Assembly (NCBI GenBank): GCA_965224705.1
Contig: OZ245056.1
Span: forward strand, 1,600,001-1,664,000
Length of the DNA: 64,000 nt
Reading direction: 5' to 3'
Source: Spirochaetaceae bacterium
GTDB lineage: Bacteria; Spirochaetota; Spirochaetia; DSM-2461
The number at the start of each line of letters is the position of its first letter. Position 1 is the first letter of the stretch. Below, piece after piece: positions 2,822 to 56,540 of this stretch. A model generated the notes under the pieces. That model made no database searches and was not told the origin of the DNA. It saw nothing but the letters and a program-made list of their open reading frames with translations. The translations under genes and the position numbers were made by a program.

Positions 2822-3095
2822 GTTACCCGGTGCCCGAAAGCCTGTAAAACCCCCTTCAACCCATCCCGGGAGTCAAAATGCTATCCGTAAAGAGCAGCTT
2901 ATGTACAACATGCTTCTGTGTGAGACGAGTTGTGTATCGAAAACCATTTTTTTGCTTCGGGGCACTGAAATTGATACATTTCGGGCTAAGACAGTGAGGG
3001 AATAACATGGTAATTTTTTTATAAGTTGTTTTCTTACTATGGTATAACAAGATTGAAATGGATTCTTACTGCATTAACAAGCTTTCTGACACAGG

Positions 3096-4010: not shown

Positions 4011-4079
4011 GAATTAATTAACATCCTCTTTTTAGAGACCCATGTAAGGGGAATCTTCCCGGGATGTTTCCATCATTCA

Positions 4080-4781
4080 CTATGGCAGAATAGATGCTGA
4101 TTCGCCCCATCCGTTTATCTGTACCCTCTTATTTGCCGGATCAATGATTTCTTTTCCATCAACAACATAGCGATAAAAACGGGCAGTCTCTGGAATATCA
4201 ACTACTGTAGAATAATAACCAGGTTGGATCAAGGACTCTTCCAGAGGAATAAGAAATGGATCCCAACGATTGAAATCTCCGATTACAGAGACACGGGAAC
4301 CAGAATCCCCTTTATAACCGAATCGAAAAACACTGTCAGAGAGACGGCTCACTCCGGTGGCCGGTGTAATCGAAATTTCCGGGAGACTCAAAAAAGAGAT
4401 TTGAATTCCATGATTATCAGACTCAATATCAGCATATGGGTCAATCGTCCACAAACCATCAACTATTAACCGGTATCGCAAAACTGTCATTCCTTCCGGT
4501 CTGGGAAAGAATAGAACAAATACATCATGTTGATTTTTTTGAAAGGTGTGTAACTGCCGGAATTGGTCATGCTCGAAAGCTATGGACACAGTCCGTGTCT
4601 TTTTTGTTCCAAGGTAGCTGAAAACAATGGTATCCTGAGTTAGAATCGGTTTAAAAGACTTTTCTGTATGAAGAAATCTATAGTTCAATTCAGCATTGAA
4701 GGGAGCAGAATAACCCAACTCTATGAATGAGACGAGAATCACAGCAATGAGAACATTATTTCTGAATCTGTTTCTTCTCAT
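4080..4781 (-). CDS. Secreted protein with two carbohydrate-binding (CBM48/AMPK-beta-like) domains
   Basis: N-terminal signal-like segment; YRLIVDGLW..DP and V.GDFN.W...YRYVVDG...DP.N motifs. Confidence 0.75.
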   Translation of the reverse strand: MRRNRFRNNVLIAVILVSFIELGYSAPFNAELNYRFLHTEKSFKPILTQDTIVFSYLGTKKTRTVSIAFEHDQFRQLHTFQKNQHDVFVLFFPRPEGMTVLRYRLIVDGLWTIDPYADIESDNHGIQISFLSLPEISITPATGVSRLSDSVFRFGYKGDSGSRVSVIGDFNRWDPFLIPLEESLIQPGYYSTVVDIPETARFYRYVVDGKEIIDPANKRVQINGWGESASILP

Positions 4782-4801
4782 GCCCTGCCCATCTCATTAT
4801 A

Positions 4802-4828
4802 TTTTCGGTCAAAACAGAATTGGCTTTA
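4802..4828 (-). promoter_or_regulatory. Candidate sigma28 (FliA) promoter for the 4080-4781 gene
   Basis: Minus strand reads TAAA-N15-ACCGAAAA; consensus is TAAA-N15-GCCGATAA. Confidence 0.4.
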
Positions 4829-4832
4829 ATCC

Positions 4833-4859
4833 TCCAATGCAAAGAATTCCCGCCGATAC
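4833..4859 (+). promoter_or_regulatory. Candidate sigma28 (FliA) promoter for flcA
   Basis: TCCA-N15-GCCGATAC ending 25 nt upstream of the ATG of a flagellar gene. Confidence 0.45.
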
Positions 4860-4884
4860 TATATGGGAATAGGACAGATTACTC

Positions 4885-38241: not shown

Positions 38242-38495
38242 CAGAGTGTTCAAGGTAATTATTGATCTGATTTTTTAACCGCAGAGAGCGCAGAGAGCGC
38301 AGAGTGTTCCAGGGAATTATTCCCCATGGTTTTTTAACTGCAAAGGGCGCAGAGAGCGCAGAGTGTTCACGGTAATTATTCACCATGGGTTTTTACCGCA
38401 GAGGATGCAGAGTGTTCAAGGTAATTATTGATCTGATTTTTTAACCGCAGAGGACGCAGAGAGCGCAGAGAGATCACGGTAAATACTCACCAATT
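38242..38495. repeat. Five-unit tandem array (49-59 bp) built on AACCGCAGAG-(NNCGCAGAG)n
   Basis: Units start at 38242, 38300, 38359, 38408 and 38466; units 1 and 4 share CAGAGTGTTCAAGGTAATTATTGATCTGATTTTTTAACCGCAGAG. Confidence 0.85.
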
Positions 38496-38821: not shown

Positions 38822-41800
38822 CTAATCCTGTACCCACTTGACATAAATAGTTCTTGATGATTGACTCCAATCCCAATTACCCACCCCATGGCTCTTAGGA
38901 GGATGAGCCCATACTGTTCCCAATCCATCTTTATTTTCGGTATAGCCGGCTATGCTGAATCCGGTTCTAGTTGGAAGAGAAGGGTAAGAGAAATAGCCAT
39001 CAGATTGTATTGTTGTAAGGCCAGAATAATTAGCATCATTCGGATCTTTAATAATTATTTCATGTCCATAGTTAATAATTCCGTAATATGCATAAATTGT
39101 TTTATCCTCAGGGTAGTCCCAAACTCTCTCGCCCTCTTTTACTTTATTGCCGGCTCCTCCTGTATCATAATACCGATGCCCGGAATATAACCTACCGACA
39201 CTACTCAGCCTGAGATCGTCAGTATAGCCTTGAAATTCTTTCGCATTGTCACTAATGGCAGGCGAAAGAATACCACCGGGAAGCGGCAATTTCTCTCCCA
39301 ATGTTGCTACGACAGATGTTGTAGTACCTCCATTGCTGCCGCCGTTTATATCAAGTGTTACGGTGTATGTGGGTTTTTTCCAATGGGCATAAATCGTTGC
39401 CGCGCTGTCCTGGTCCCAATTATTTTTCGGCTCCATATTCTTGTCGTAATACTGAGTTCCTGTTCCATTATTATTCGCAAAATAACCCTGGAATACATAG
39501 GATACTTCAACCTTAGTGTTCGCGAGAGTATCAAAATACTCATAGACAGGCGGTGTCGGCACCGCCTGGTTTGTTGGCAGCAATGCGTCATAGGTAGCCT
39601 GGAGTGTGGGAGTCCCTGATTCTCCGTTATTCTTATTTAAAGAAACGGCATATTTATTGGCTGTCCATTGAGCGTAGAGGGTAGTAGCCGCCGTTATCGT
39701 AGTATCGAAGTCAAACAAAGTCCCGCCGCTTTGAGCAGTGGACCAGCCTGCAAGTGTGTACCCCGTCCGTGAGGGGCTCTCCGAAACGGCCGTTCCTCCA
39801 CCGGGAATGTTCTGGGTAGTGGGAGTTCCCGAGCCATAATTTGGGTCAAAACTCACCGTGTGAAAGGTTTGCGTCCACTGGGCATACAGGGTTATGTTCG
39901 TTGTTACTGATGTTCCTCCATTTCCAAAGTTAAACTCATTACCACCAGATTGGTTATCAAACCAACCAGTAAACGCATAGTTGCTTCGTGTGGGACGGGG
40001 AGGTTCTGTAGCGGTGTAGCCATTGGGAACTGTTTCAGAGGCTGGTGCCGTGCTGTCTCCTCCATTGACATCGTAGCTTACCGTGTATGTTGTGGCAGCC
40101 CACCGGGCATATAGGGTTATGTCCTTTGTTACTGGTGTTCCTCCGCTTCCAAAGTTAAACTCATTGCCGCCTGTTTGGGCATCAAACCAGCCGACGAACG
40201 TCTGTCCGGTACTTGAGGGATCGTTGGGCTCAGTAGCGGTTCCGCCATCGTTAACTGTTTCAGCGGCTGGTTCTGTTGTGCTGTCTCCTCCATTAACATC
40301 GTAGCTTACCGTGTACTGCTTAATCCACTGGGCATACAATTCTATGTCAGCCGTTACCTTTGTTCCAAAGATATACTCACTACCACCTGATTGGGCATCA
40401 GACCAACCAGTAAACGCATAGCCGCTTCGTGTGGGATCGGCGGGTTCAAGAGCGGTTTTATCATGGTCAACTGTTTCAGCGGCTGGTGCTGGGCTGTCTC
40501 CTCCATTAAGATTGTAGGTTACCGTGTATGTAATAGGAGTCCACTGGGCATACAAGAACCATTCAATAGTTACTGTGGTTCCTTCGCTTCCAAATGTGAA
40601 GGAATCTCCGCCCCCATCAGCCTGTTTGTTCCAGGCAGCATTCAGGGTATAGCCGGTTCTGCTTACCGTTGGGGCTGCTGGTATTATATCGCCATCGTTT
40701 ACTTTTTGAGTTGCCGGGACCGGTGTGGCGTCTCCTCCATTGGCATAGTAGGTTACCGTGTACTGTCTGAAAGACCACTGGGCATACAGGGTGATGTCCG
40801 CTGTTACTGGTGTTCCTCCATCTCCAAATAGGAAGTAAGTTCCACTTTTATCAGATTTTGTAGTCCAGCGAGTATCCAGGAAAGCGCCGCCATCTCCACT
40901 TATACCCGTTGGGGCTGAAGCTATTGTTTCGCCATGGTTTACTATTTGAGTTGCCGGATCCGGTGTGCCTATTCCCCCATTAACATCGTAGGTTACCGTG
41001 TACTGTTTGATAGTCCATTGGGCATACAGGGTTATGTCCGCTGTTACCGCTGTTCCTCCGCTTCCAAATAGGAAGGAAGTTCCGGTCCCATCAGCTTTTG
41101 TATTCCAGGCGGTACTCAGGGTAAAACCGGTTTTGCTTATACCCGTTGGGGCTGCTGCTATTATATCGCCATTGTTTACTGCTTGAGTTGCCGGATTCAG
41201 TGTGCCTGTTCCCTCATTAACATGGTAGGTTACCGTGTGCTGGGTGTTAGACCACTGGGCATAGAGGGTGATGTCCTCTGTTACTGGTGTTCCTCCTTTT
41301 CCAAATAGGAAGGCATCTCCACTCCCATCAGCTTTTGTATTCCAGGCAGTACTCAGGGTAAAACCGGTTTTGCTTACCGTTGGGGCGGCTGCTATTATAT
41401 CGCCATCGTTTACTGTTTGAGTTTCCGGGACCGGTGTGTCGTCCCCTCCATTGGCATGGTAGGTTACCGTGTGCTGGGTGTTAGACCACTGGGCATACAG
41501 GGTGATGTCCTCTGTTACTGGTGTTCCTCCTTTTCCAAATAGGAAGGCATCTCCACTCCCATCAGCTTGTGTATTCCAGGCAGTACTCAGGGTAAAACCG
41601 GTTTTGCTTATACCCGTTGGGGCTGCTGCTATTATATCGCCATTGTTTACTGTTTGAGTTGCCGGATCCGGTGTGCCGTCTCCTCCATTGGCATGGTAGG
41701 TTACCGTGTGCTGAATGTCAGACCACTGGGCATACAGGGTGATGTCCTCTGTTACCGGTGTTCCTTCATTTCCAAATAGGAAGGAAGCTCCGGTCCCATT

Positions 41801-42328
41801 AGCGTCTGTATTCCAGGCTGTATCCAGGAAAAAGCCAGTTCTACTTACCGTTGGGGCTGCTGCTATTGTTTCGCCATGGTTTACTGTTTGAGTTGCCGGG
41901 ACCGGTGTGTCGTCTCCTCCATTGGCATGGTAGGTTACCGTGTGCTGCTTAACCCACCGGGCATACAGGGTGATGTCTGCTGTTACGGCTGTGCCAAAGT
42001 TAAATTCATTGCCGCCTGATTGGGCATCAAACCAACCAGTAAACGTATAGCCGTTTCGTGCGGGATCGGCGGGTTTAGCAGCGGTTCCGCCATCGGTCAC
42101 TTTTTCAGCGGCTGGTGCTGTGCTGTCTCCTCCATTGACATTGTAGCTTACCGTGAACTCGTTCGTTACTGGAACCTCGGGGGTAGCTCCAGGACAGGCT
42201 GTTATCACGATAGCGATGACTGCAATCAATGCAGTCCCGACAAATATGGAAATTCCATTCCTTCTTGCGGGTCTTCCCGCATTCCCGCCGCTGTTAAACA
42301 GGCGGTTCCAAAACTCAAACCGTTTCAT
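38822..42328 (-). CDS. Surface lipoprotein made of ~14 InlB B-repeat (Listeria-Bacteroides/Flg_new) domains
   Basis: Hydrophobic signal ending VITA-C; 14 units of TV.Y..NGG...GY.F.GW...ITLYA.W; start at MKRFEF with GAGGAG RBS. Confidence 0.9.
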   Translation of the reverse strand: MKRFEFWNRLFNSGGNAGRPARRNGISIFVGTALIAVIAIVITACPGATPEVPVTNEFTVSYNVNGGDSTAPAAEKVTDGGTAAKPADPARNGYTFTGWFDAQSGGNEFNFGTAVTADITLYARWVKQHTVTYHANGGDDTPVPATQTVNHGETIAAAPTVSRTGFFLDTAWNTDANGTGASFLFGNEGTPVTEDITLYAQWSDIQHTVTYHANGGDGTPDPATQTVNNGDIIAAAPTGISKTGFTLSTAWNTQADGSGDAFLFGKGGTPVTEDITLYAQWSNTQHTVTYHANGGDDTPVPETQTVNDGDIIAAAPTVSKTGFTLSTAWNTKADGSGDAFLFGKGGTPVTEDITLYAQWSNTQHTVTYHVNEGTGTLNPATQAVNNGDIIAAAPTGISKTGFTLSTAWNTKADGTGTSFLFGSGGTAVTADITLYAQWTIKQYTVTYDVNGGIGTPDPATQIVNHGETIASAPTGISGDGGAFLDTRWTTKSDKSGTYFLFGDGGTPVTADITLYAQWSFRQYTVTYYANGGDATPVPATQKVNDGDIIPAAPTVSRTGYTLNAAWNKQADGGGDSFTFGSEGTTVTIEWFLYAQWTPITYTVTYNLNGGDSPAPAAETVDHDKTALEPADPTRSGYAFTGWSDAQSGGSEYIFGTKVTADIELYAQWIKQYTVSYDVNGGDSTTEPAAETVNDGGTATEPNDPSSTGQTFVGWFDAQTGGNEFNFGSGGTPVTKDITLYARWAATTYTVSYDVNGGDSTAPASETVPNGYTATEPPRPTRSNYAFTGWFDNQSGGNEFNFGNGGTSVTTNITLYAQWTQTFHTVSFDPNYGSGTPTTQNIPGGGTAVSESPSRTGYTLAGWSTAQSGGTLFDFDTTITAATTLYAQWTANKYAVSLNKNNGESGTPTLQATYDALLPTNQAVPTPPVYEYFDTLANTKVEVSYVFQGYFANNNGTGTQYYDKNMEPKNNWDQDSAATIYAHWKKPTYTVTLDINGGSNGGTTTSVVATLGEKLPLPGGILSPAISDNAKEFQGYTDDLRLSSVGRLYSGHRYYDTGGAGNKVKEGERVWDYPEDKTIYAYYGIINYGHEIIIKDPNDANYSGLTTIQSDGYFSYPSLPTRTGFSIAGYTENKDGLGTVWAHPPKSHGVGNWDWSQSSRTIYVKWVQD

Positions 42329-42611
42329 AAACACTCCTCTCAGATTTTCGATCAAGATTAATAACGGGAATACATCCCGCATAAGGTAACAGACAAAGTA
42401 ACAATATATTATATACTATAAGAAAATGGGGGAGATTTCAACTTTTTTATGAAATTTCTTGTTTATGCGTGTCCATTTGCGGCTCTTTCAGCAGTTTCCA
42501 GGGATTGTTTGTTGTTTCGAGATTCGTATAGTGCTGGTCAACTGCTGCGGTCTCTTCCGTCCCGGTCGATAAGCATGTAACGCATTCGGGTATGATTGCT
42601 GCTTTGGGGGT

Positions 42612-43280: not shown

Positions 43281-43439
43281 CTATCCTCCATTCATAAGCA
43301 AAACCCTCCCCCTTGGATGGTGCATCTTTAGAATATGCTGTTGCTTATTTTGGCAGACATGAGTGTATATTTGAGTTGTTACAATGGAACTGTGCCCAAG
43401 AAAAGACTGGATGTATTTTATGTCCACCCCCTCCTCCAG
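43281..43439 (-). pseudogene. Tyrosine recombinase (XerD-like) C-terminal fragment
   Basis: Manual translation LEEGVDIKYIQSFLGHSSIVTTQIYTHV...HP: box II LGH motif and catalytic Tyr. Confidence 0.85.
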
Positions 43440-44702
43440 GAAGAGAGTGAAAGCTGGTCCCTATTGGAAAAGGTTCTACGGGAGGGTGCACGAAGAATGT
43501 TGAAGCAGGCGCTGGAGAATGAAATTGAAGAATACCTCATGAAGCATTCTCAGACCGATGAAAACGGTCATCATTTGGTTGTTCGGAATGGCTATCATCC
43601 CCAGCGTAGTATTGTCACGGGAATCGGCCCTATGACAATCAAAGCACCGAGAGTTGATGATCGGAAAATCGATCCGGAGAGGAAAAACCCCTTTACCAGT
43701 GCGATTCTTCCCCGGTATTTGAGAAAGATTCCCAGTATCGATAACCTGCTCCCTGTATTGTACTTGAAAGGAGTCTCGACAAGCGGTTTTCAGGATGCCC
43801 TGGCATCCATACCTGGGGAAGGAGCAAAAGGGCTCTCCGCTGCCAATATCGTCCGTCTGAAGAAAAGCTGGGAAGATGATTTTAACACCTGGAACCACCG
43901 GGATCTGAGAGGCAAGAAATATGCCTGCATCTGGGTGGATGGTATTCATTTCAATGTTCGTCTGGAGGATGACCGATGCTGCATTTTGGTCATTGTCGGA
44001 GCGGATGAGAACGGAAACAAGGAGCTTATTGCCGTTGAATCGGGTTATAGAGAGTCGACGCTTAGCTGGAAAGAGATGCTGCTTTCAATCCGTCATAGGG
44101 GTTTGCAAGAGGCATCCAAGCTGGCGATTGGCGATGGGGGTCCTGGATTCTGGAAGGCTTTGGATGAGGTTTTCCCACAAACAAAGCGACAGCGATGCTG
44201 GGTCCACAAGACGGCCAATATTCTGGATAAGATGCCGAAATCTGTGCAGCCTGGAGCCAAGGCACTGATCCATGATATGTATATGGCTGATACGGAAGAA
44301 AAAGCCCGGAAGGCCTATGAACATTTTATCTCTGTGTATGGGGCCAAGTACCCCAAAGCGACCGAATGCCTGTGGAAGGATCAGGATGATCTGTTTCGAT
44401 TTTATTCTTTTCCTGGTATTCACTGGATTCATATCCGCACGACAAATCCGATTGAATCAACATTCGCGACGGTCCGGCTCAGGACAAAGCGAACAAAAGG
44501 TTGCGGGAGTAGAATTGCGACTCTCACGATGGCTTGGAAGCTATGTTGTGAGGCGGAGAAGACCTGGAAAAAGATGAAGGGTTACAAGCTGATCCCAAAA
44601 GTTATTCAGGGAGTTTTTTGTAAAGATGGAAATTTCATTGGGAAAGTTGCATAAATTGGAGGATTTCGCACTTTTTTCATCCACAACATTTGACAATATC
44701 TC
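43440..44702 (+). mobile_element. IS256-family element, left end missing
   Basis: Transposase motifs VRNGY, PRV.DR, LYLKG.ST, WVDG, IGDG, QRCWVHK, RTTNPIES; stop at 44654; right end CACAACATTTGACAATATCTC at 44682-44702; no matching left end seen. Confidence 0.9.
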
Positions 44703-45044: not shown

Positions 45045-45512
45045 TTACAGGATGAAACTTGTGTAAACCTGCAGCGCGGCGAGCAAGGCGAATCCAAGCA
45101 TAATCATCCATTTCATGAACCCCACCTGATCTTTGAGCCCATTGAATTGTTCTTTGAGAGCATTGAATTCGGGTTTGGTAACCATCTGCTCCTTGAGGCT
45201 TTTGATTTCCCCATTGAATTCGGCTTTAGTAACCATTTGCTCCTTGAGGCTTTTGATTTCCCCATTGAATTCGGCTTTAGTAACCATTTGCTCCTTGAGG
45301 CTCTTGATTTCCCCATTGAACTCGGTTTTGGTAACCATCTGCTCGTCCAAATGGGCGATGTGGTTGTACTGGGATTTGAGCATCAATGGAATGGCGTTTT
45401 CTGTAGACAGCTTACCCTCATCCGCTATCTGCTGCCTGGCCTTTTCCGTCGATTTGGTTAAGAATGCCGATATTAATTCATCTTCAAATGACTGTTTTTT
45501 ATCTTCAGCCAC
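45045..45512 (-). CDS. Bdr-like coiled-coil protein with 17-aa tandem repeats and C-terminal TM anchor
   Basis: GTG start with AAGGAGG; (EQMVTK.EFNGEIKSLK)x3 plus a partial copy; hydrophobic C-terminus. Confidence 0.75.
   Translation of the reverse strand: MAEDKKQSFEDELISAFLTKSTEKARQQIADEGKLSTENAIPLMLKSQYNHIAHLDEQMVTKTEFNGEIKSLKEQMVTKAEFNGEIKSLKEQMVTKAEFNGEIKSLKEQMVTKPEFNALKEQFNGLKDQVGFMKWMIMLGFALLAALQVYTSFIL
45160..45345. repeat. 51-bp in-frame tandem repeat (~3.6 copies)
   Basis: Unit AACCATTTGCTCCTTGAGGCTTTTGATTTCCCCATTGAATTCGGCTTTAGT. Confidence 0.9.
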
Positions 45513-45681
45513 TGACCAGCCTCCTTGAATGCTAACCATTAAATCGTATTGCCGATAACCCGTCAAGGCTTGATAAAAAGTATTCTCGACTCTAAATACC
45601 AGTATAATGAATAAAAACTGCATTATAAGTGAACCAGAATGCAATGATTCGAGAGACCTCAAAGGAATTTTGATTCCTGCT

Positions 45682-45888
45682 GTTACTCAGAGGCCGTGCC
45701 TGCCTCCAGAGCCAGTGCCTTGCCGCGAAATCCCACCCCGTAGATGACAATCTTCTCCGGGCTCCACTTCTCCTGCGCTCCCTTCAGGTATTTTTGCTCC
45801 GCCTGGGAATAGGCCTCCTGCGCCAGTTGTTTTAGCGGCGTGGTTCCGGCGGCAGGTTCCCGTTTGAACTCGAACAGCAGAACATGAG
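45682..45888 (-). pseudogene. Orphan 3' tail of a fourth array AAA/PD-(D/E)XK paralog
   Basis: HVLLFEFKREPAAGTTPLKQLAQEAYSQAEQKYLKGAQEKWSPEKIVIYGVGFRGKALALEAGTASE*, nearly identical to the array gene tails. Confidence 0.88.
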
Positions 45889-45889
45889 G

Positions 45890-45990
45890 CGCTCAGGCCG
45901 CTGGGCCTAAACTTTCTTTTTTTTCGACAAAAAGAAAGTTTAACAAAGAAAAATACGACTCAAGGGGGTGTCCCCCTTGAGAATCCCCCC
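45890..45990. repeat. Array spacer repeat, copy 1 (double hairpin)
   Basis: CGCTC.GGCCGCTGGGCCT, then an AAACTTTCTTTTT/AAAAAGAAAGTTT hairpin, then CTCAAGGGG-GTGTC-CCCCTTGAG-AATCCCCCC. Confidence 0.9.
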
Positions 45991-46082
45991 TCCCCCCGCT
46001 CTGTGTTCCCCCAAAAAAATTTCTGGGGCTTAATTCAGGGCGTAGGATTTGGTTCTTAATGGAACGCCGTATGCGGGCCAAC

Positions 46083-47855
46083 TCAGAACTGGGTGCGAAG
46101 TGCCTCCCCGCCTGCCTCCAAGGCCAGTTCCTTGCCGCGAAAGCCCACCCCGTAGATGATAATCTTTTCCGGGTTCCATTTCTCCTGTGCCCCCTCCAGG
46201 TATTTCCGCTCCGCCTGGGAATAGGCCTCCTGTGCCAGCTGCTTGAGCGGTGTAGTTCCGGCGGCAGGCTCCCGTTTGAACTCGAACAGCAGGACATGGC
46301 CCGGCCGCCCAGGGCCGCGCTGAATCAATATGATGTCGGGGCGGCCCATGCCGCATTCCCGGTTGCTCTCCACCGTGTACTCGCCGCTCAGGTAGGCCAG
46401 CATTCCCAGAACCAGACCGTGGTAGAAGCCCTCCACTCGCTCCATTTCCTCGTCGTCGTCGTCGGTATCAGCGGTGTCGTAATAACTGGCCATGCTCAGG
46501 AGAACCTTCCCCAGACCTCTCTCGATCAGGGTGGCATCCCCTTCCCTGATACCGCGGATGAAGAAATGAAAGGATTCACCGGCCTCCATATCTTCCTCCA
46601 GCCAGTCCCGAATCACCTTTTCGTAGACCACCGTCACTTCCAGATTGGGAATGGAAAGCCGGTGGGTTATGGAGGTGTGGACTTGTTGCCGCTCATCGGC
46701 CTTCAGGTAGCCGCCGTGGAGCAGGAAACTCCACGCCACATCCGGGCGGGTTCGTATCTGCGGGTAAACGATGTTGACCGCAACCTCCCGTCTCACTTCC
46801 TCTCCTCTGAGCAGCCCCTCAATGGTTTCCCGGCTGTCCCTTTTGTTCAGCTGCAGCGTTTCCTTGACCATCCTGTTGGCACTGGTGTGCACCCAGTAGG
46901 GCAGAAGTCCGTCCTTGATGTTTCGGAAATAGCTCACGAGACTCCAGGGATTGTAGATGACCGTGTCGCCGCCGAAGATGTAGCCGTTGTACCATTGACG
47001 AATGCCGTCCAGTCTGGACTCCTGCCCGAAATAGGCGGCCATTTCTTCCACTTCGGGTTCCGTGAAGCCAAAGCAATCCTTCATGGCGTCGCTCAGCACG
47101 GTGGACACCGCCGGGTTATTGAAGTCGCTGAAGATGCTCTCCTGGGCCACTTTGAGTATCCCGATAACCACCGCCTGCTTCAAATTGGGGTTGTCCTTGA
47201 AGCTCTGCACCATGAAGCTGCGGATGAAGGCGATCATCTCATCGTAGAAGTTGTCGGTGTAGGCGGCGTGCAGCGGGGTGTCGTACTCGTCCAGAAGAAT
47301 GTAGACCGGTTTTCCGTAGGCGCGCCTGAGCCAGGTGGAGAGGTGTTTTATGGATTGGGCACAATCCTGATCCGTGCCCTCATCGTACAGAATTTTTTCA
47401 AATTTTGTCCGTTCCCTGTCATCCAACATGCCGGAGTTTTGCAAGTATTGATGTCTACGGAATTCATCGGAAAGCATATCCTTGATAAGTGCCATGCAAT
47501 CTTCATGATTCGATTTTTTTACGTTCTTGAAGCTTAAGTGTATCACCGGATATTGACCCATGTATTCGCGGCATCGGGGGTGTTTTGATATGGACATGTC
47601 ATTGAACAATGAGACATTGGGCGGCTCTTCGGAGGGGGCATCGCCGCTGTTGCCGCCCGGTGGGGGGGCCTCAAAGAAATAGCGGATCATGCTGAGGTTC
47701 AGGGTTTTGCCGAAGCGGCGGGGGCGGGTGATGAGGTGCACCTTGCTGGGGTGATCAATAAGATAGGCGATAAGACGGGTTTTATCAACAAAATAGCAGC
47801 TTTCACTGATGAATTCCTTGAAATCAGTGATGCCCTGTTCCAGTTTCTTTTTCAT
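46083..47855 (-). CDS. AAA-ATPase-like + PD-(D/E)XK nuclease protein, array copy C (590 aa)
   Basis: G..DF..F......VDKT, TRPRRFGKTLNLSM Walker A, LLDEYD Walker B, WYNGY, YNPWS, C-terminal SNRE.G.GR.DI...FEFK; start set by paralog alignment. Confidence 0.9.
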   Translation of the reverse strand: MKKKLEQGITDFKEFISESCYFVDKTRLIAYLIDHPSKVHLITRPRRFGKTLNLSMIRYFFEAPPPGGNSGDAPSEEPPNVSLFNDMSISKHPRCREYMGQYPVIHLSFKNVKKSNHEDCMALIKDMLSDEFRRHQYLQNSGMLDDRERTKFEKILYDEGTDQDCAQSIKHLSTWLRRAYGKPVYILLDEYDTPLHAAYTDNFYDEMIAFIRSFMVQSFKDNPNLKQAVVIGILKVAQESIFSDFNNPAVSTVLSDAMKDCFGFTEPEVEEMAAYFGQESRLDGIRQWYNGYIFGGDTVIYNPWSLVSYFRNIKDGLLPYWVHTSANRMVKETLQLNKRDSRETIEGLLRGEEVRREVAVNIVYPQIRTRPDVAWSFLLHGGYLKADERQQVHTSITHRLSIPNLEVTVVYEKVIRDWLEEDMEAGESFHFFIRGIREGDATLIERGLGKVLLSMASYYDTADTDDDDEEMERVEGFYHGLVLGMLAYLSGEYTVESNRECGMGRPDIILIQRGPGRPGHVLLFEFKREPAAGTTPLKQLAQEAYSQAERKYLEGAQEKWNPEKIIIYGVGFRGKELALEAGGEALRTQF

Positions 47856-47888
47856 GACGTCTTTAGCATAGCATGATTTTGTGGGTGT

Positions 47889-47989
47889 CGCTCGGGCCGC
47901 TGGGCCTAAACTTTCTTTTTTTTCGACAAAAAGAAAGTTTAACAAAGAAAAATACGACTCAAGGGGGTGTCCCCCTTGAGAATCCCCCC
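47889..47989. repeat. Array spacer repeat, copy 2
   Basis: Near-identical to 45890-45990 and 49843-49943. Confidence 0.9.
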
Positions 47990-48035
47990 TGTGTTCCGTG
48001 AAAAGCGGCTTTTTCAACGCCGTATGCGGGCCAAC

Positions 48036-49808
48036 TCAGAACTGGGTGCGAAGTGCCTCCCCGCCTGCCTCCAAGGCCAGTGCCTTGCCGCGAAAGCCTA
48101 CCCCGTAGATGACAATCTTCTCCGGGTTCCACTTCTCCTGCGCCCCCTCCAGGTATTTTTTCTCCGCCTGGGAATAGGCCTCCTGCGCCAGCTGCTTGAG
48201 CGGCGTGGTTCCGGCGGCAGGCTCCCGTTTGAACTCGAACAGCAGGACATGGCCCGGTCGCCCGGAGCCGCGCTGAATCAATACGATGTCGGGGCGGCCC
48301 ATGCCGCATTCCCGGTTGCTCTCCACCGTGTACTCGCCACTCAGGTAGGCCAGCATCCCCAGTACCAGACCGTGGTAGAAGCCCTCCACCCGCTCTATTT
48401 CCTCGTCTTCGCCAGCGGTGTCATAATAACTGGCCATGCTCAAAAGAACCTTCCCCAGACCTCTCTCGATCAAAGCGGCATCCCCTTCGCGAATACCGCG
48501 GATGAAGAAATGAAAGGACTCGCCGGCCTCCACATCCTCCTCCAGCCAGTCCTTGATTGTGGTCATGTAGGAATAGCGCACTTCGCGGTTGGGAATTTCC
48601 AGCCGGTAGTCCTGGCTTATCTCGTGCTGCCGCCTTTCGCTGGCCTTCAGGTAGCCGCCGTGGAGAAGGAAACTCCATGCCACATCCGGGCGGGTTCGGA
48701 TCTGCGGGTAGACGATGTTGACCGCTACTTCCCGCCGCACCTCCTCTCCCCTGAGCAGTCCCTCAATGGTTTCCCGGCTGTCCCTTTTGTTCAACTGCAG
48801 CGTTTCCTTGACCATCCTGTTGGCACTGGTGTGCACCCAGTAGGGCAAAAGTCCGTCCTTGATGTTTCTGAAATAGCTCACGAGACTCCAGGGATTGTAG
48901 ATGACCTTGTCTCCACCGAAAATGTAGCCGTTGTACCATTCCCTAATGCCGTCCAGTCTGGACTCCTGCCCAAAATAGGCTGCCATTTCTTCCACTTCGG
49001 GTTCCGTGAAGCCAAAGCAATCCTTCATGGCGTCGCTCAGCACGGTGGACACCGCCGGGTTATTGAAGTCGCTGAAGATGCTTTCCTGGGCCACTTTGAG
49101 TATGCCGATGACCACCGCCTGCTTCAAATTGGGGTTATCCTTGAAGCTCTGCACCATGAAGCTTCGGATGAAGGCGATCATTTCATCGTAAAAGTTGTCG
49201 GTGTAGGCGGCGTGCAGCGGGGTGTCGTACTCGTCCAGAAGGATGTAAACTGGTTTGTTGTAGGCGCGATGGAGCCAGGCGGAGAGGTGTTTTATGGATT
49301 GGGCACAATCCTGATCCGTGCCCTCATCGTACAGAATTTTTTCAAATTTTGTCCGTTCCCTGTCTTCCAACATGCCGGAGTTTTGCAAGTATTGATGTCT
49401 ACGGAATTCATCGGAGAGCATATCCTTGATGAGTGCCATGCAATCTTCATGATTCGATTTTTTCACATTCTTGAAGCTTAAATATATCACCGGATATTGG
49501 CCCATGTACTCGTGGCATCGGGGGTGTTTTGATATGGACATGTCATTGAACAATGAGGCATTGGGCGGCTCTTCGGTGGGGCCATCGCCGCTAACGCCGC
49601 TGTTGCCGTGCAGTGGCGGGGCCTCAAAGAAGTAGCGGATCATGCTGAGGTTCAGGGTTTTACCGAAGCGGCGGGGGCGGGTGATGAGGTGCACTTCGCT
49701 GGGGTCATTGATAAGATGCGCTATGAGACGGGTTTTATCGACAAAGTAGCAATCATTGTCGATGAATTTCTTGAAATCGGTGATGCCCTGAGTCAGATTC
49801 TTTTTCAT
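48036..49808 (-). CDS. AAA-ATPase-like + PD-(D/E)XK nuclease protein, array copy B (590 aa)
   Basis: Same motifs as copy C. Confidence 0.9.
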   Translation of the reverse strand: MKKNLTQGITDFKKFIDNDCYFVDKTRLIAHLINDPSEVHLITRPRRFGKTLNLSMIRYFFEAPPLHGNSGVSGDGPTEEPPNASLFNDMSISKHPRCHEYMGQYPVIYLSFKNVKKSNHEDCMALIKDMLSDEFRRHQYLQNSGMLEDRERTKFEKILYDEGTDQDCAQSIKHLSAWLHRAYNKPVYILLDEYDTPLHAAYTDNFYDEMIAFIRSFMVQSFKDNPNLKQAVVIGILKVAQESIFSDFNNPAVSTVLSDAMKDCFGFTEPEVEEMAAYFGQESRLDGIREWYNGYIFGGDKVIYNPWSLVSYFRNIKDGLLPYWVHTSANRMVKETLQLNKRDSRETIEGLLRGEEVRREVAVNIVYPQIRTRPDVAWSFLLHGGYLKASERRQHEISQDYRLEIPNREVRYSYMTTIKDWLEEDVEAGESFHFFIRGIREGDAALIERGLGKVLLSMASYYDTAGEDEEIERVEGFYHGLVLGMLAYLSGEYTVESNRECGMGRPDIVLIQRGSGRPGHVLLFEFKREPAAGTTPLKQLAQEAYSQAEKKYLEGAQEKWNPEKIVIYGVGFRGKALALEAGGEALRTQF

Positions 49809-49842
49809 GACGTCTTTAGCATAGCATGGTTTTGTGGGTGGT

Positions 49843-49943
49843 CGCTCGGGCCGCTGGGCCTAAACTTTCTTTTTTTTCGACAAAAAGAAAGTTTAACAAA
49901 GAAAAATACGACTCAAGGGGGTGTCCCCCTTGAGAATCCCCCC
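49843..49943. repeat. Array spacer repeat, copy 3
   Basis: Near-identical to copies 1 and 2. Confidence 0.9.
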
Positions 49944-49989
49944 TGTGTTCCGTGAAAAGCGGCTTTTTTAACGCCGCATGCGGGTCAAC

Positions 49990-51762
49990 TCAGAACTGAC
50001 CGCGAAGCGCCCCTCCCTCTGCCTCCAGAGCCAGTTCCTTTCCGCGAAAGCCCACCCCGTAGATGATAATCTCCTTTGGGTTCCACTTCTCCTGCGCCCC
50101 CTCCAGGTATTTTTTCTCCGCCTGGGAATAGGCCTCCTGCGCCAGCTGCTTGAGCGGCGTGGTTCCGGCGGCAGGCTCCCGTTTGAACTCGAACAGTAGG
50201 ACATGGCCCGGTCGCCCGGAGCCGCGTTGGATCAATACGATGTCGGGGCGCCCCATGCCGTATTCCCGGTTGCTCTCCACCGTGTACTCGCCACTCAGGT
50301 AGGTCAGCATCCCCAGTACCAGTCCGCGGTAGAAGCCTTCCCCCCGCTCCATTTCCTCGTCTTCGCCAGCGGTGTCGTAATAACTGGCCATGCTTAAGAG
50401 AACCTTCCTCAGCCCTCTCCCGATCAAGGCAGCATTCCCTTCCCTGATGCCGCAGATGAAGTAATAAAAGGACTCGCCTGCCTCCACATCCTCCTCCAGC
50501 CAGTCCTTGATTGTGGTTATGTAGGAATAGCACAGCTCGCGGTTGGGAATATCCAGCCGGTAGTCCTGGCTTATCTCGTGCTGCCGCCTTTCGCTGGCAT
50601 TCAGGTAGCCGCCGTGGAGCAGGAAACCCCACACTACTTCCGGGTGGGTTCGTATCTGTGGATAGACGATGTTGATCGCCACTTCCCGCCTGACCTCCTC
50701 TCCCTTAAGCAGCCTCTCCATGGTTTCCTGGCTGTCCCTTTTGTTCAGCTGCAGCATTTCCTTGACCATCCTGTTGGAACTGGTGTGCACCCAGTAGGGG
50801 TGCAGTCCGGCCGATGGCGCGCTTAGGTAGTTGATGATGCTCCAGGGGTTGTAGATGACCGTGTCCCCGCCGAAGATGTAGCCGTTGTACCATTCCCTGA
50901 TGCCGCCCATCTTGTCTCCATGTCCAAAGTAGTCTGCCATGGCCTCCACTTCGGGGTCCGTGAAGCCAAAGCAATCCTTCATGGCGTTGCTCAACACGGT
51001 GGACACTACCGGGTTGTTGGAGTCGCTGAAAATGCTCTCCTGCGCCACCTTGAGTATGCCGATGACCACCGCCTGCTTCAAATTGGGGTTGTCCTTGAAG
51101 CTCTGCACCATGAAGCTGCGGATGAAGGCGATCATCTCATCGTAGAAGTTGTCGGTGTAGGCGGCGTGCAGCGGGGTGTCGTACTCGTCCAGAAGGATGT
51201 AGACCGGTTTGTTGTAGGCGCGATGGAGCCAGGCGGAGAGGTGTTTTATGGATTGGGCACAATCCTGATCGGCACCTTTTCTTTGCAGCATCCTGATAAA
51301 ACATTCTTGATCAGCATCATCCAACATACCGGAGTTTTGCAAGTATTGATGTCTACGGAATTCATCGGAGAGCATATCTTTGATAAGTGCCATGCAATCT
51401 TCATGATTCGATTTTTTTACGTTCTTGAAACTTAAGTATATCACAGGGTATTTCCCCATGTACTCGCGGCATCGGGGGTGTTCCACAATGGACATGCCAT
51501 TGAACAATGAGGTAGTGGGCGGCTCTTCGGTGGGGGCATCGCCGCTAATGCCGCGGTCGCTGTCCGGTAGCGGGGCCTCAAAGAAGTAGCGGATCATGCT
51601 GAGGTTCAGGGTTTTGCCGAAGCGCCGGGGACGGGTAATGAAATACACCTTGCTGGGGTCGTCAATAAGGCAGCCGATGAGATGGGTTTTATCGACAAAA
51701 TAGCAATCATTGTCGATGAATTCCTTGAAATCGGTGATGCCCTGAGTCAGATTCTTTTTCAT
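49990..51762 (-). CDS. AAA-ATPase-like + PD-(D/E)XK nuclease protein, array copy A (590 aa)
   Basis: Same motifs; start at MKKNLTQG by alignment with copy B. Confidence 0.9.
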   Translation of the reverse strand: MKKNLTQGITDFKEFIDNDCYFVDKTHLIGCLIDDPSKVYFITRPRRFGKTLNLSMIRYFFEAPLPDSDRGISGDAPTEEPPTTSLFNGMSIVEHPRCREYMGKYPVIYLSFKNVKKSNHEDCMALIKDMLSDEFRRHQYLQNSGMLDDADQECFIRMLQRKGADQDCAQSIKHLSAWLHRAYNKPVYILLDEYDTPLHAAYTDNFYDEMIAFIRSFMVQSFKDNPNLKQAVVIGILKVAQESIFSDSNNPVVSTVLSNAMKDCFGFTDPEVEAMADYFGHGDKMGGIREWYNGYIFGGDTVIYNPWSIINYLSAPSAGLHPYWVHTSSNRMVKEMLQLNKRDSQETMERLLKGEEVRREVAINIVYPQIRTHPEVVWGFLLHGGYLNASERRQHEISQDYRLDIPNRELCYSYITTIKDWLEEDVEAGESFYYFICGIREGNAALIGRGLRKVLLSMASYYDTAGEDEEMERGEGFYRGLVLGMLTYLSGEYTVESNREYGMGRPDIVLIQRGSGRPGHVLLFEFKREPAAGTTPLKQLAQEAYSQAEKKYLEGAQEKWNPKEIIIYGVGFRGKELALEAEGGALRGQF

Positions 51763-51771
51763 GGTGTCTTT

Positions 51772-51800
51772 AGCATAGCATGGTTTTGTGGGTGAGGCAA
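51772..51800 (-). promoter_or_regulatory. Sigma70-type promoter of array copy A (near-leaderless)
   Basis: TTGCCT-N17-TATGCT with extended TGn, ATG 9 nt downstream, no SD. Confidence 0.55.
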
Positions 51801-52175: not shown

Positions 52176-52354
52176 GTGAGTCAGTATATTAATCCGATGA
52201 ACGACTTCTTCATGCGTTACCTGCTGGGGAGCAAGGACAGCGAGAACAACTGCCGCGGCTTTGTCAATGCCGTTCTTCAAGACATTGATTTCCCGACGGT
52301 AAGTAGCCTGACTATTCTCAATCCCTTCAACCTGAAAGAATACCTCGGGCACAA
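52176..52354 (+). pseudogene. Rpn family (PD-(D/E)XK nuclease/putative transposase) 5' fragment, cut by a MITE
   Basis: INP.NDFF.RYLLGS.......FVNAVL...LNPFNLK; promoter TTGACA-N17-TACCAT at 52138-52166; frame runs into the MITE end. Confidence 0.8.
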
Positions 52355-52439
52355 GGAGCTTGTCGGACTCACGCCTCACGGTTCGATTTTTGCCCTTCTC
52401 TCCAGAAGCAAGCCTCCTGCTTGCTTCTGGAAAGCCGCC

Positions 52440-54474
52440 ATCGAGTAGGAGGCACCCTGCGAAAGCAGGGATGCCGTCCTCTCACAGAACCGTGCGTACG
52501 GGTCCGTACACGGCTCCTCATGCATGTGTCCAATTTCTTTCAGTCTCAGGCTGAATAAATAAACTGCCCGAGTTCTTCAATGAAATAGCGATTGGGAAAA
52601 GCTTTGTGCATAGCCGGACTCCTTGAAGTCACCCAGATGCCCATATTGTTGATGATACGATTGGCCCCATACTCTGATACTCCCCTTTTTAATAGAGTTC
52701 GTTTAAGATTCCGGGGCCTCTTGTGCTCATACACTATTCGGGATCTCAATCGCCTTCTGGCATGGGCTTCCACTCTTTGAAGCTGGTGCTTATCTTCGGT
52801 CATACCGTAATATCCGCTCCAGCCCCGGTACCAGATATTCAGCTTTTCCACTGTAGCTTCAATAGACTGATTCGTTCGTCTGGGTATCAATTCACAAAGC
52901 CTTTCATTGGCTCTGCTCATTGACATCGACGAAATCGTAATCATTCCGGCCACAATGGTCATACCCAAAAACTTGATAACTTCGGCCTTTCCTGTTTTGC
53001 TCTTCTCCTCGTTGACAACGAGTTTCAGTTTCTTTTCAATGAAGTTTGAAATACTTCCCATCACTCTATCCGCCGCCTTTTGGGACTTAACGAATATGCT
53101 GCAGTCATCAGCAAATCGACAAAACTCCAGTCCTCGTTTTTCCAGTTCCCTGTCTAACTCGTCCAGAATCACATTGCTGAGCAATGGACTTAATGGACTA
53201 CCCTGTGTCGTTCCTACAAAGGTATTTTCTTTCTGTCCATTCACCATCACCCCGCTCCGCAGAGTCAGGCCGGTCAAGCGCAGAATCCGGTTGTCGATTT
53301 TATGGACCGTTCTCAGCTGTCTGATGATTCTATCGTGGCTGACCCTATCAAAGAACTTCGAGAGGTCGATATCCACCACAATATCCTTGCCGCTGCTGAC
53401 TATCGACTGAGCCTTTTCAATAGCCTGTTTCTGACTTCGTCCAGGACGAAAGCCAAAGCTGCTGGCAGAGAAGGTGGGGTCGATAATGGGTTCGAGCAGA
53501 AATTTGATGGATGCCTGGACCACTCTGTCACGCACACACGGCACGCCCAGAAGTCTCACTCCTCCTCCCGGTTTCGGGATCTCCACTCGTCTGACCGGTT
53601 GAGGTTTGTAGCTCCAGTCTTTCAGCTCCGCTGAGAGTTCCCGGATTTCCTGCTCAAGATTGGCTTTGTAATCCTCTACAGTGATCTCGTCGATGCCTGA
53701 TGACCCCCTGTTCTTACTCACCTCTCTAAAGCCTCGCCTCAATACCGGTGGACGGCATAATTCCTCAAAAAGTCTCATGCTGTCCACTTTGAACAGTTCT
53801 CCTTGTTCCAATTTTCTCTCCTTCGGTCACAGACGAGTATTTCTGCGTGTTCCACATCTCTTTTCCTTGTTTACGTCAGGAATGGGTGGAACACTCCCTA
53901 ATGGCTGGTTTCGTCTGATCTGATACTCATCGTTCCAACAGAACGTTTGCATGTTCCCCCCTTCACCTTTAACATCCTTGTCCTTTGATTCCTGTTTTAT
54001 CCTCACATATGTTGCCATATCGTCACAGGCAGAAATCTTTACGGTTACTATGGGTTCTTCTGACTGCCGGTGGAAGATAACCCTACATCCCTGCACGGCT
54101 TAGGAAATCTTATGGCGCTGTTCCACAGTTTCCATTCCACAGGCCCTCCCCGGGTAAGACCAATCTCCATTTCATATCCCGCCTGCCTTCTGCACAATTA
54201 TGGGGTTACGTAAAGGATATGGGACTTCGATAGCCGAAGGTATCTCATCCTCCATAACTGCTTTTCAAAGATTCACTCTCGTTCAGGCGAATATTTTGAC
54301 TTAGACTTCCTTCAGATTCCTCATTGGGAAAGACAATCTCCATCTGGTGAGCAGGCATACTCTCAATGCGTTGTCTATCTTTCTTCGGACACCCTTGTCT
54401 TTGTCTACAAATTCCCTCCTTTCAGGGCTTTGTCGGGATTTTCACCCGCTGGATATTGGCCATGCCGGGCACAC
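52440..54474 (-). mobile_element. Complete group II intron, class IIC (2035 nt)
   Basis: 5' end GTGTGCCCGGCATGG at 54474; short domain V GAGCCGTGTACGGACCCGTACGCACGGTTC; domain VI and 3' end CCTACTCGAT at 52440; internal RT ORF. Confidence 0.92.
52546..53811 (-). CDS. ltrA: Group II intron reverse transcriptase/maturase, no endonuclease domain
   Basis: G..GID, VRRV.IPK..GG.R.LG.P...DR..Q, SFGFRPGRS, VD.DL.KFFD, G..QG.PLSPLLSN, RFADD, maturase RGW..YY. Confidence 0.95.
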   Translation of the reverse strand: MEQGELFKVDSMRLFEELCRPPVLRRGFREVSKNRGSSGIDEITVEDYKANLEQEIRELSAELKDWSYKPQPVRRVEIPKPGGGVRLLGVPCVRDRVVQASIKFLLEPIIDPTFSASSFGFRPGRSQKQAIEKAQSIVSSGKDIVVDIDLSKFFDRVSHDRIIRQLRTVHKIDNRILRLTGLTLRSGVMVNGQKENTFVGTTQGSPLSPLLSNVILDELDRELEKRGLEFCRFADDCSIFVKSQKAADRVMGSISNFIEKKLKLVVNEEKSKTGKAEVIKFLGMTIVAGMITISSMSMSRANERLCELIPRRTNQSIEATVEKLNIWYRGWSGYYGMTEDKHQLQRVEAHARRRLRSRIVYEHKRPRNLKRTLLKRGVSEYGANRIINNMGIWVTSRSPAMHKAFPNRYFIEELGQFIYSA

Positions 54475-54785: not shown

Positions 54786-56540
54786 TTGAAAAAACGTATC
54801 GGGCTGGGATATTTTGACTTCAAAGAGTTCATCGATGAAAACCTCTACTTTGTGGATAAAACCCCGCTCATCGGGTACCTGATCGATCAGGGGAGCAAGG
54901 TCAACCTGATCACCCGGCCCCGCAGGTTTGGAAAATCCCTCAATATCAGCATGTTGGGCTACTTTTTTGAAACCGATAAACCGGGGAAGGTGGACCCGGA
55001 GGGGCACAGAACTCTCTTTGATGAGTTCAAGATCTGCTCCCATCCCCGGTTTGAGGAATTTCAGGGCCACTACCCGGTGATACACCTCAGCTTTAAGGAA
55101 GCCAAGGACCCCGACTTTGAGACATCTCTTGAGTTTTTGCAGGATGCCATAGCCGGTGAGTACCGGCGTCATAAATATCTGACAGAGCTCCTTGATAAAG
55201 AGGAGAAACTCTATTTTGAGAGCATTCTTCATGGTCGGGGAAACCGGAAAGAGTACTCCTCTGCCATAAAAGAGCTCTCCCGCTGGCTGGAGATGGCCTA
55301 CAAGCAAAAGGTGTTCATCCTGCTGGATGAGTACGACACTCCCTTGCAGGCGGCTTACCTGCACGGTTGTTACAAGGAAATGATCCCCTTTATCCGCAGT
55401 TTTATGCTCCAGACCTTCAAGGACAACCCGGCCCTCAAGCAGGCCGTGGTAATCGGGATCCTTCGGGTGGCTCAGGAATCGATTTTTAGTGATTTTAACA
55501 ACCCCTCGGCTGCCACCATTCTGGATATGAGTATGGATGAATATTTTGGCTTTACCGAAGAGGAGGTAGTGGAGGCGGCCTGCTATTTTGATCTGGAAGA
55601 TAAGCTCCCGGGCATCCGGGAGTGGTACAACGGCTACATCTTTGGACAGAACCGGGTAATCTACAACCCCTGGAGCATTATGAGCTACCTGCGGGAGCCC
55701 CGTAACGGTCTGATTCCCTACTGGGTTAACACCAGCAACAACCTCTTGATCAAAGAGGTACTCCAGTTAGATAAACTGGAGGGGAAAAAGGGGGTTGAAA
55801 CCCTCCTGAAAGGGGAGCCTTTCCGCAAAAATGTAATGAACCATGTGGTCTATACGGATATCAAAAAGAGCCCCGAGGCGGCCTGGAGTTTTCTGCTCCA
55901 TGCGGGGTACCTCAAGGCAAGTGAGCGGGAGCAGGACGGTACCCGCATCACCTACAACCTCTCCATACCCAATCTGGAGGTGGCGTATGTCTATCAGACC
56001 ATGGTGCAGAACTGGTTTAGGGATAATATGGATGTGGATACCTTGCTGCAATCATTCATCGAGGGTATCCAAACCCATAATACTGGAAAGATAGAAGAGA
56101 CTCTGGAGAGCATTCTGCTGCGGAATGTGAGTTACTACGATGCGGCAATCTCTGAGGAGTCCGAAAAAGGGGGGGAGCGAACCAAACGGGAGAACTTCTA
56201 CCACGGCCTTGTGCTGGGACTGCTCCTTCATTTGGGTTCAACCTATAGCGTGGAAAGCAACTCCGAGCATGGTTTAGGGAGACCCGATATTGTTATTATC
56301 AAAAAAACCGACCCCGTGGAAGCGGTGATCATCGAACTGAAACAGGCTCCCAAATCCGCTCCTGACACCCCGGAGACGCTGGCGGAAGCTGCCCTGAACC
56401 AGATTGAAACCCAAAAGTATGACAAGGGGATAAAAGAGAAATGGCTCCCCCAAACCTTCTTTTGTCTGGGAGTGGGTTTCAAGGAGAAGGAGCTAAAGGT
56501 CTCTGCCAAAGACCATGCCCCGCCATCCCCGTTTGCGTGA
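54786..56540 (+). CDS. AAA-ATPase-like + PD-(D/E)XK nuclease protein, divergent paralog D (584 aa)
   Basis: TRPRRFGKSLN, LLDEYD, WYNGY, YNPWS, SN.E.G.GRPDI...IELK; TTG start with AGGAGG and TTGTTA-N17-TAGAAT upstream. Confidence 0.9.
   Translation: MKKRIGLGYFDFKEFIDENLYFVDKTPLIGYLIDQGSKVNLITRPRRFGKSLNISMLGYFFETDKPGKVDPEGHRTLFDEFKICSHPRFEEFQGHYPVIHLSFKEAKDPDFETSLEFLQDAIAGEYRRHKYLTELLDKEEKLYFESILHGRGNRKEYSSAIKELSRWLEMAYKQKVFILLDEYDTPLQAAYLHGCYKEMIPFIRSFMLQTFKDNPALKQAVVIGILRVAQESIFSDFNNPSAATILDMSMDEYFGFTEEEVVEAACYFDLEDKLPGIREWYNGYIFGQNRVIYNPWSIMSYLREPRNGLIPYWVNTSNNLLIKEVLQLDKLEGKKGVETLLKGEPFRKNVMNHVVYTDIKKSPEAAWSFLLHAGYLKASEREQDGTRITYNLSIPNLEVAYVYQTMVQNWFRDNMDVDTLLQSFIEGIQTHNTGKIEETLESILLRNVSYYDAAISEESEKGGERTKRENFYHGLVLGLLLHLGSTYSVESNSEHGLGRPDIVIIKKTDPVEAVIIELKQAPKSAPDTPETLAEAALNQIETQKYDKGIKEKWLPQTFFCLGVGFKEKELKVSAKDHAPPSPFA

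Follow-up and report, generated by a model that had tools for sequence, protein, structure and literature searches.

Segment exchange among DUF1703 ATPase-nuclease genes of a Spirochaetaceae bacterium and old alleles at three variable modules

Why would neighbouring nuclease genes look like patchworks of one another, and could the exchanged pieces bear on what their products recognise? The question arises from a 64,000-nt stretch (the window) of the closed 3.0 Mb genome of a Spirochaetaceae bacterium (GCA_965224705.1, contig OZ245056.1, positions 1,600,001 to 1,664,000), which carries three such ATPase-nuclease genes, named A, B and C here. A first-pass annotation had described three regularly spaced, head-to-tail paralogs of 590 residues and the tail of a fourth, all of which are present in the sequence (Table 1), with start-to-start spacings of 1954 and 1953 bp. 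The equal length of the three proteins is partly a coincidence, since C has three codons fewer near residue 70 and three additional ones near residue 465. Nucleotide identity is 88.0% between A and B, 90.5% between B and C and 84.2% between A and C.

The three genes belong to the DUF1703 family, defined by the AAA-ATPase_like domain PF09820, the PDDEXK_9 domain PF08011, a Walker A motif RPRRFGK(S/T) and a Walker B motif DEYD (Knizewski 2007, PMC1913061). A, B and C matched PF09820 with 151–155 bits (cut-off 26.1) and PF08011 with 45 bits (cut-off 25.5), and both Walker motifs and the PD-(D/E)XK core are present. Spread over 23 loci, 44 full-length copies with open frames make up 2.6% of the genome, which also carries fragments; 16 of the copies, at six loci, form one close subfamily that includes A, B and C. 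In all 65 genes from four genomes, Walker A residues R46, R47, G49 and K50, Walker B residues D192, E193 and D195, and nuclease residues D507, E525 and K527 are invariant. The ratio of nonsynonymous to synonymous polymorphism (pN/pS) stays at 0.05–0.08 for three constant blocks and reaches 0.19 for the nuclease; the proteins are thus under purifying selection.

The same annotation had B switching partner block by block. All five blocks that it quoted were found, with the partners it had assigned, and partner-specific sites cluster far beyond chance: sites shared by B with C or with A form 60 runs versus 135 ± 8 after shuffling (10,000 shuffles, minimum 107), or 46 versus 86 ± 6 when counted by codon. 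Among gap-free informative sites, B agrees with C at 159 and with A at 116, while at a further 47 A and C agree and B is unlike both. B is therefore more than an alternation of its neighbours and not a join of the two.

Recombination is well supported against both shuffled and single-tree controls. In the 16 close copies, incompatibility between sites within 100 nt was 0.330, compared with 0.494 ± 0.008 after shuffling, and r2 dropped with distance from 0.435 to 0.071. Near and far incompatibility were 0.285 and 0.539, versus 0.324 and 0.322 in 30 single-tree simulations with matched rate variation, and mosaic identity was 0.977 versus 0.934 ± 0.002 in 10 single-tree simulations. Six-block haplotypes are distinct in 15 of the 16 copies, and 10 of the 15 block pairs have more combinations than one tree permits, as is also seen inside the variable module V1 described below. 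A single consistent tree along the gene is not what we found: blocks follow differing trees, each rejecting those of the other blocks by log-likelihood differences of 373–5630 in a comparison biased by every tree having been fitted to its own block. The number and position of painted segments were dropped as evidence because single-tree simulations gave equally many (16.9 vs 15.8), although this null, with 200 informative sites where 380 were observed, is imperfect.

The exchanging pool is the whole genome rather than the array. About 75% of the painted donor sequence came from other loci, and 25% came from within the array versus a chance expectation of 14%. The identity of a long tract of C with a distant copy (Table 1) appears to record a recent long-range exchange. 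Reshuffling of variable blocks, which the first-pass annotation had placed at this locus, is thus supported more strongly than its reader could show, with the 44-gene family as the unit in place of the array. RecA and MutS are encoded in the genome, our searches returned no match to a resolvase family, and no full-length integrase adjoins the arrays. As no dedicated recombinase was found, RecA-type homologous gene conversion is the likely engine, and we are confident that homologous recombination drives the exchange of segments.

Variability is concentrated in three modules, V1, V2 and V3, and is weaker at the N-terminus and in V4 (residues 421–475). Within the subfamily of A, B and C, each variable block has two or three discrete alleles. 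Synonymous distances between alleles rise to 0.89 in V1 and 0.87 in V3 but do not exceed 0.41 in C1, C2 or the nuclease; the alleles are therefore old. Of 13 congeneric genomes searched, four had matches, with 10 each in the closed genomes G001 and G009, mostly in tandem arrays. For a cross-species comparison we used the genes that have two or more mates in their subfamily (37 in all) and counted a gene if a foreign-species gene was closer to it than some mate of its own subfamily. This was the case for 36 of the 37 genes in V1, for all 37 in V2 and at the N-terminus and for 23 in V3, but for only seven in C1, one in C2 and none in V4 or the nuclease. By this measure the module alleles predate the split of the congeneric species, while their flanks have been homogenised. 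One V1 class is common to all three species. Across species the same V1 allele is 0.12–0.20 apart, like the backbone (three cross-species pairs of matching subfamilies), whereas two V1 alleles inside one array are 0.42–0.46 apart; the agreement of same-allele and backbone distances points to long co-inheritance.

Two neighbouring genes in G001 are 0.42 apart at the nucleotide level in V1 and at most 0.02 apart in each block downstream of it, forming a near-isogenic pair that differs almost solely in V1 and the N-terminus. A four-gene G001 array (L017) contains the full 2×2 set of V1 and V3 combinations. With this pair and this array the question of recognition becomes directly testable. In five unrelated genomes, V1 was the most divergent block after normalisation in 12 of 22 close pairs, 15 of the 22 coming from one genome; the extreme pair is 27% identical in V1 and 86–100% identical elsewhere. 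In the genome G092, 21 of the 23 matches were analysed, one partial match and one with a stop being left out. The V1-equivalent region is also the most variable, and the least correlated with the rest, among 21 dispersed copies of another subfamily.

Public sequencing runs, as short assembled contigs, supplied flanks and single alleles from other samples and are too short to link blocks; read depth in one RNA run is indistinguishable from copy number or DNA. At window positions 49316–49366, the ends of contigs from runs X1 and X2 show B-like flanks joined to an altered form of the V1 allele of A, which hints that other strains carry further variants.

The AlphaFold2 model of B consists of a nucleotide-binding domain, a helical lid, a winged helix and a PD-(D/E)XK nuclease. 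The predicted order of P-loop domain, helical lid and winged helix is that of STAND proteins, and the archaeal ATPases PAB2304 (2qen; Z 18.2, root-mean-square deviation (rmsd) 3.9, 303 residues aligned) and SSO1545 (2fna; Z 16.5) share these three parts with the model. Further fold matches were to NLR/Avs and Orc1/TnsC proteins at Z 10–15, among them the NLR structure 9h2l at Z 15.1; a sequence search of solved structures gave nothing below E 0.28, and an Atlas search only same-family clusters. Residues 421–590 of the model form two helices and the nuclease, and a separate C-terminal repeat sensor is absent. The DUF1703 protein is accordingly modelled as a sensor-less, STAND-like ATPase with a nuclease. 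A homodimer prediction for residues 1–455 with ATP scored 0.00 and counts neither way.

The predicted position of V1, between strand 2 and the Walker B strand, is what we take to be the site of the initiator-specific motif in initiator ATPases. Cdc6 contacts DNA through that motif and the wing hairpin (PMC8222357). By analogy, a DNA ligand as for Orc1/Cdc6 and TnsC or a protein ligand as for STAND sensors would both be possible. Net charges range from −5 to +1 in V1, −9 to −2 in V2 and −2 to +2 in V3, and such neutral-to-acidic modules lean towards a protein ligand, which fits at least as well as DNA.

Table 1. Features of the A/B/C array and its surroundings (window positions; residue numbers refer to B)
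Feature	Position	Strand	Description
Gene A	49990-51762	minus	DUF1703-family ATPase-nuclease, 590 aa; PF09820 E 4e-44 and PF08011 E 1.2e-11
Gene B	48036-49808	minus	DUF1703-family ATPase-nuclease, 590 aa; reference for residue numbers; AlphaFold2 pLDDT 90.2
Gene C	46083-47855	minus	DUF1703-family ATPase-nuclease, 590 aa
3' tail of fourth copy	45683-45889	minus	Residues ~520-582, joined to intergenic repeat
V1 in B	49269-49472	minus	Residues 113-180; helices between strand 2 and Walker B strand (predicted)
V1 in A	51223-51426	minus	
V1 in C	47325-47528	minus	
V2 in B	48843-49058	minus	Residues 251-322; end of nucleotide-binding domain and helical lid (predicted)
V2 in A	50797-51012	minus	
V2 in C	46899-47114	minus	
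V3 in B	48549-48647	minus	Residues 388-420; beta-hairpin wing of winged helix and next helix (predicted)
V3 in A	50503-50601	minus	
V3 in C	46605-46703	minus	
494-nt tract of C	46699-47192	minus	Identical to copy at G000:504972, 1.14 Mb off (93.8% overall)
A-B intergenic repeat	49809-49989	minus	Hairpins 49912-49934 and 49861-49895; -10-like hexamer 9 nt before B start
B-C intergenic repeat	47856-48035	minus	Hairpins 47958-47980 and 47907-47941; -10-like hexamer
C-tail variant intergenic repeat	45890-46082	minus	Hairpins 45959-45981 and 45908-45942
Distant DUF1703 paralog	54786-56540	plus	584 aa, 49% identical to B; deepest family branch in genome

We propose that A, B and C are among 44 copies that trade segments across the chromosome, likely by RecA-type gene conversion, and that selection likely retains several ancient alleles at three modules on the predicted surface. 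Our prediction is that V1–V3 determine the target of each ATP-switched nuclease, most likely a phage or other invader. The parts of this proposal differ in strength. On balance we favour selection for diversity as what maintains the alleles. That the modules form the recognition surface and that the role is defence is possible at somewhat less than an even chance. That selection maintains a repertoire of variants differing in recognition, the nuclease being ATP-switched and probably defensive, comes close to even while staying on the lower side, and the full defence-repertoire reading lies between doubtful and nearly even. More doubtful still is a bolder form, in which sensor-less STAND nucleases would hold their recognition surface inside the ATPase/winged-helix core, and bacteria would maintain dozens of copies and shuffle two or three ancient allelic modules among them as a combinatorial innate-immune repertoire, under balancing selection like that on the major histocompatibility complex; if true, it would account for the repeated DUF1703 expansions across phyla. 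Of the first-pass suggestion that block reshuffling yields specificity variants, the reshuffling holds and no dedicated shuffling enzyme came to light; the specificity of the blocks is what we infer from the predicted module position and the ancient polymorphism.

DUF1703 is a large family without known function that has expanded many times, and the seat of its diversity can now be named. Should the modules set specificity, bacteria would have an immune repertoire that is combinatorial and does without a sensor domain; should they not, the family offers a clear case of gene conversion.

Several results weigh against a selected defence repertoire. With synonymous codons only, the three-way runs test is not significant (36 vs 42 ± 4.5, p=0.11). 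In the five unrelated genomes, normalised ratios for V2 and V3 (0.32 and 0.36) are like those of constant blocks (0.30–0.42), their elevation being confined to some pairs in two of the five. pN/pS in the variable blocks is 0.31–0.40, in every case below 1, and so gives no direct sign of positive selection. Coarse allele classes yield 31 distinct combinations among the 44 genes, and G009 contains recent exact duplicates; its six-gene array (L013:2847-13781), next to a type II restriction-modification (R-M) pair, holds near-exact duplicates, as a recent tandem duplication of two genes would leave. For B and the distant paralog of Table 1, PADLOC 2023 and NCBIfam 2026 returned no family at E ≤ 0.01, and there was no PHROG match. 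The surroundings of most arrays are transporter and housekeeping genes, and only some adjoin defence genes, as annotated for 55 of the 95 listed flanking open reading frames (ORFs). Among the latter, one DUF1703 array has a NACHT-Mrr gene and Rpn genes as neighbours, the R-M pair adjoins the G009 array and an MNT-HepT pair sits within a G032 array. The NACHT protein (L025:2-2032, minus strand), with a weak N-terminal Mrr match, adjoins a five-gene array.

The most serious alternative, although we consider it doubtful, is a neutral mosaic. An expanded family would undergo ordinary gene conversion, and old alleles would persist because divergent blocks resist conversion and re-enter through conserved anchors from other subfamilies, with no selected specificity. 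V1 is the most substitution-tolerant region of the family, and its homogenisation can be slowed by heterology with no need for selection. In keeping with this, pN/pS is below 1 in every block, V1 exceeds all other regions in variability at every distance, MutS is present, and DNA anchors in the N-terminal half are shared by different subfamilies; V3 of C is only 0.12 from a copy of another subfamily but 0.48 from B. Recombination in the family was also reported earlier without a function (PMC6387759). What a neutral mosaic explains less well is the behaviour of V4 and the nuclease, which between distant paralogs are as divergent as V2 and V3, yet in congener arrays are homogenised (≤0.11) and track the backbone (0/37 in the cross-species comparison). 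Conversion, moreover, crosses inside V1 (six combinations versus a tree maximum of five), the equal cross-species distances of allele and backbone speak for long co-inheritance, and catalytic residues are kept in 44/44 full-length genes.

A selfish DNA-targeting element is a weaker candidate, and we regard it as improbable. Its ATPase and winged helix would read a DNA site via V1 and V3, its nuclease would spread or recombine its own cassette, and the hairpin repeat between the genes would be a cis site. The fold matches to TnsC, MuB and Orc1/Cdc6 (Z 9–11) and the DNA contacts of Cdc6 fit such an element, as do the 23 loci, many between housekeeping genes, and the double-hairpin repeat, whose 27 matches all lie at most about 0.9 kb from a family gene or fragment. 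Related NTPase-REase genes have been described as transposon-derived (PMC11342252). However, the modules are neutral to acidic, most copies stand in head-to-tail arrays, and the repeat has variable edges and accompanies mainly one subfamily; in Rfam it stays below the gathering score. Carriage on mobile elements is rare, at 59 of 72,556 plasmids (48 of the 59 non-mobilizable) and 32 of 50,697 phage records. Of the traits of a TnsC/MuB-like transposon, similarity of fold is the one observed. Four 3' gene tails (window 45683-45889; G000 506905, 507277 and 2215454) start at the identical base and have the identical junction with the hairpin repeat, which points to one deletion that was afterwards copied between loci.

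There is only a slim chance that the bacterium is animal-associated and that the genes encode a nuclease effector directed at its host, with diversification driven by host factors. The nearest solved folds for the C-terminal part are Wolbachia CinB/CidB (Z 9.8 and 9.2, rmsd 3.3–3.5), and public runs holding this stretch include mollusc metagenomes; in Cardinium, signal peptides are predicted for 10 of the 25 paralogs, and the Medea element of a beetle includes a homolog (PMC6387759). EcoRV follows just below at Z 7.8, so the nuclease fold reveals no function. In the model the N-terminus goes straight into the ATPase domain with no leader, and the V1 pattern also occurs in genomes reached via Clostridia, gammaproteobacterium and SAR324 records.

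Dedicated programmed shuffling of the array by an invertase, shufflon, silent cassettes or a diversity-generating retroelement (DGR) is very improbable. The discrete blocks, the family-linked hairpin repeat, the promoter-less tails and a DGR cassette beside one copy would suit it. Against this, the copies of each array are all on one strand with no inverted cassettes, shared tracts vary in length and end points, and block differences are not adenine-specific, all substitution types being present in the three blocks tallied. A TAnnnT hexamer lies 6–10 nt before the start of 41 of the 44 family genes compared with 214 of 1491 long ORFs (14%), while a ribosome-binding motif was seen in just one family gene. 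Judged by these start-proximal hexamers, each copy is likely its own leaderless unit, and we think it probable that every gene has its own leaderless transcript. The DGR cassette (L024:1244-2751; G000:2211244-2212750), with bAvd (E 6e-16) and a reverse transcriptase (RT) split across reading frames, lies just upstream of a DUF1703 copy, yet targets other genes: its template-like repeat at ~2210369-2210486 matches 2209768-2209885 and 2205543-2205660, with 78–88% of mismatches at one base type.

Finally, although no public-run read or contig covers the whole array, an assembly chimera that stitched B out of A and C can practically be dismissed, given the 47 sites where B is unlike both, its best donors at other loci, open frames in 44/44 genes and the same mosaic pattern in the separately assembled closed genomes G001 and G009.

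The family has 14,407 representatives at E ≤ 0.001. The subfamily of A, B and C was matched in 3 of 201 genomes in a search of the phylum that scored at most six candidates per genome and therefore yields no copy numbers. Other features of the window include a group II intron (52440-54333, RT at 52546-53811) inserted beside Rpn/PDDEXK_2 gene pieces (52176-52448); an Rfam scan of the window found group II intron parts only, and elsewhere the genome has two more RT matches of full length, one of which contains a stop, as well as 13 matches to PDDEXK_2. A Mutator-family (IS256-type) transposase gene (43335-44654, plus strand) lies ~1 kb from the array tail. An ORF at 45045-45662 (minus strand) has no Pfam match; its product contains a tandem repeat of 17 residues (51 bp) and is hydrophobic at the C-terminal end. 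A 1186-aa protein (38822-42382, minus strand) contains 11 Listeria-Bacteroides repeat stretches (PF09479), and an intergenic repeat of ~58 bp is present in four copies at 38242-38492.

Expansion of DUF1703 and recombination among its members have been published (PMC6387759), and neither is therefore new. Cardinium cCpun has 25 DUF1703 paralogs that recombine with one another and whose role is unknown (Siozios 2019, PMC6387759), versus 44 copies here. Both Pfam domains, the Walker motifs, the four-part layout, the lineage-specific expansion and the paralog recombination are alike (PMC6387759, PMC1913061); the parts of PMC6387759 covered here, which exclude table S4, describe no fixed variable modules, species-shared alleles, combinatorial arrays or structural positions. 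The literature we searched, with few subscription papers within reach, contained no functional test of DUF1703 and no account of the V1–V3 modules, and the parts of PMC3632139 and PMC8195603 considered had nothing specific on the family. STAND antiviral nucleases of the Avs/bNACHT type also couple a nucleotide-binding domain, lid and winged helix to a nuclease (PMC13581612), as predicted here. The predicted DUF1703 proteins differ in that the nuclease is C-terminal, a TPR, LRR or WD40 sensor is absent and the copies number in the dozens. That STAND survey centres on proteins with large sensors; its seven supplementary files gave no match to six Pfam/DUF terms, although its clades may list the family by accession.

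Known diversification schemes fit less well. Silent cassettes contrast with 44 full-length genes, 41 of them with a -10-like motif; shufflons and invertases with the lack of an adjacent site-specific recombinase; and DGR targets with changes that are not adenine-specific and with DGR repeats that match other genes. Antigenic-variation cassettes (vlsE, pilE/pilS, msp2) make combinatorial variants by segmental gene conversion, a likeness to the DUF1703 genes. These differ in that there is no single expression site with silent donors, the copies are full length and the product is a predicted cytoplasmic enzyme. The best working analogy is the movement of target-recognition domains among Type III R-M mod genes of Helicobacter pylori, where divergent blocks move between loci by homologous recombination at conserved motif-coding DNA and leave incongruent trees (Furuta and Kobayashi 2012, PMC3467074). 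Unlike mod, the DUF1703 genes have no methyltransferase domain and several modules per gene, and DNA recognition by their blocks is conjectural; the 55 flanking ORFs scanned gave one methyltransferase match in Pfam, part of the separate type II R-M pair by the G009 array. Relative to all these systems, what is new here are defined swappable modules, alleles older than the species, a predicted structural position for each module and natural test pairs.

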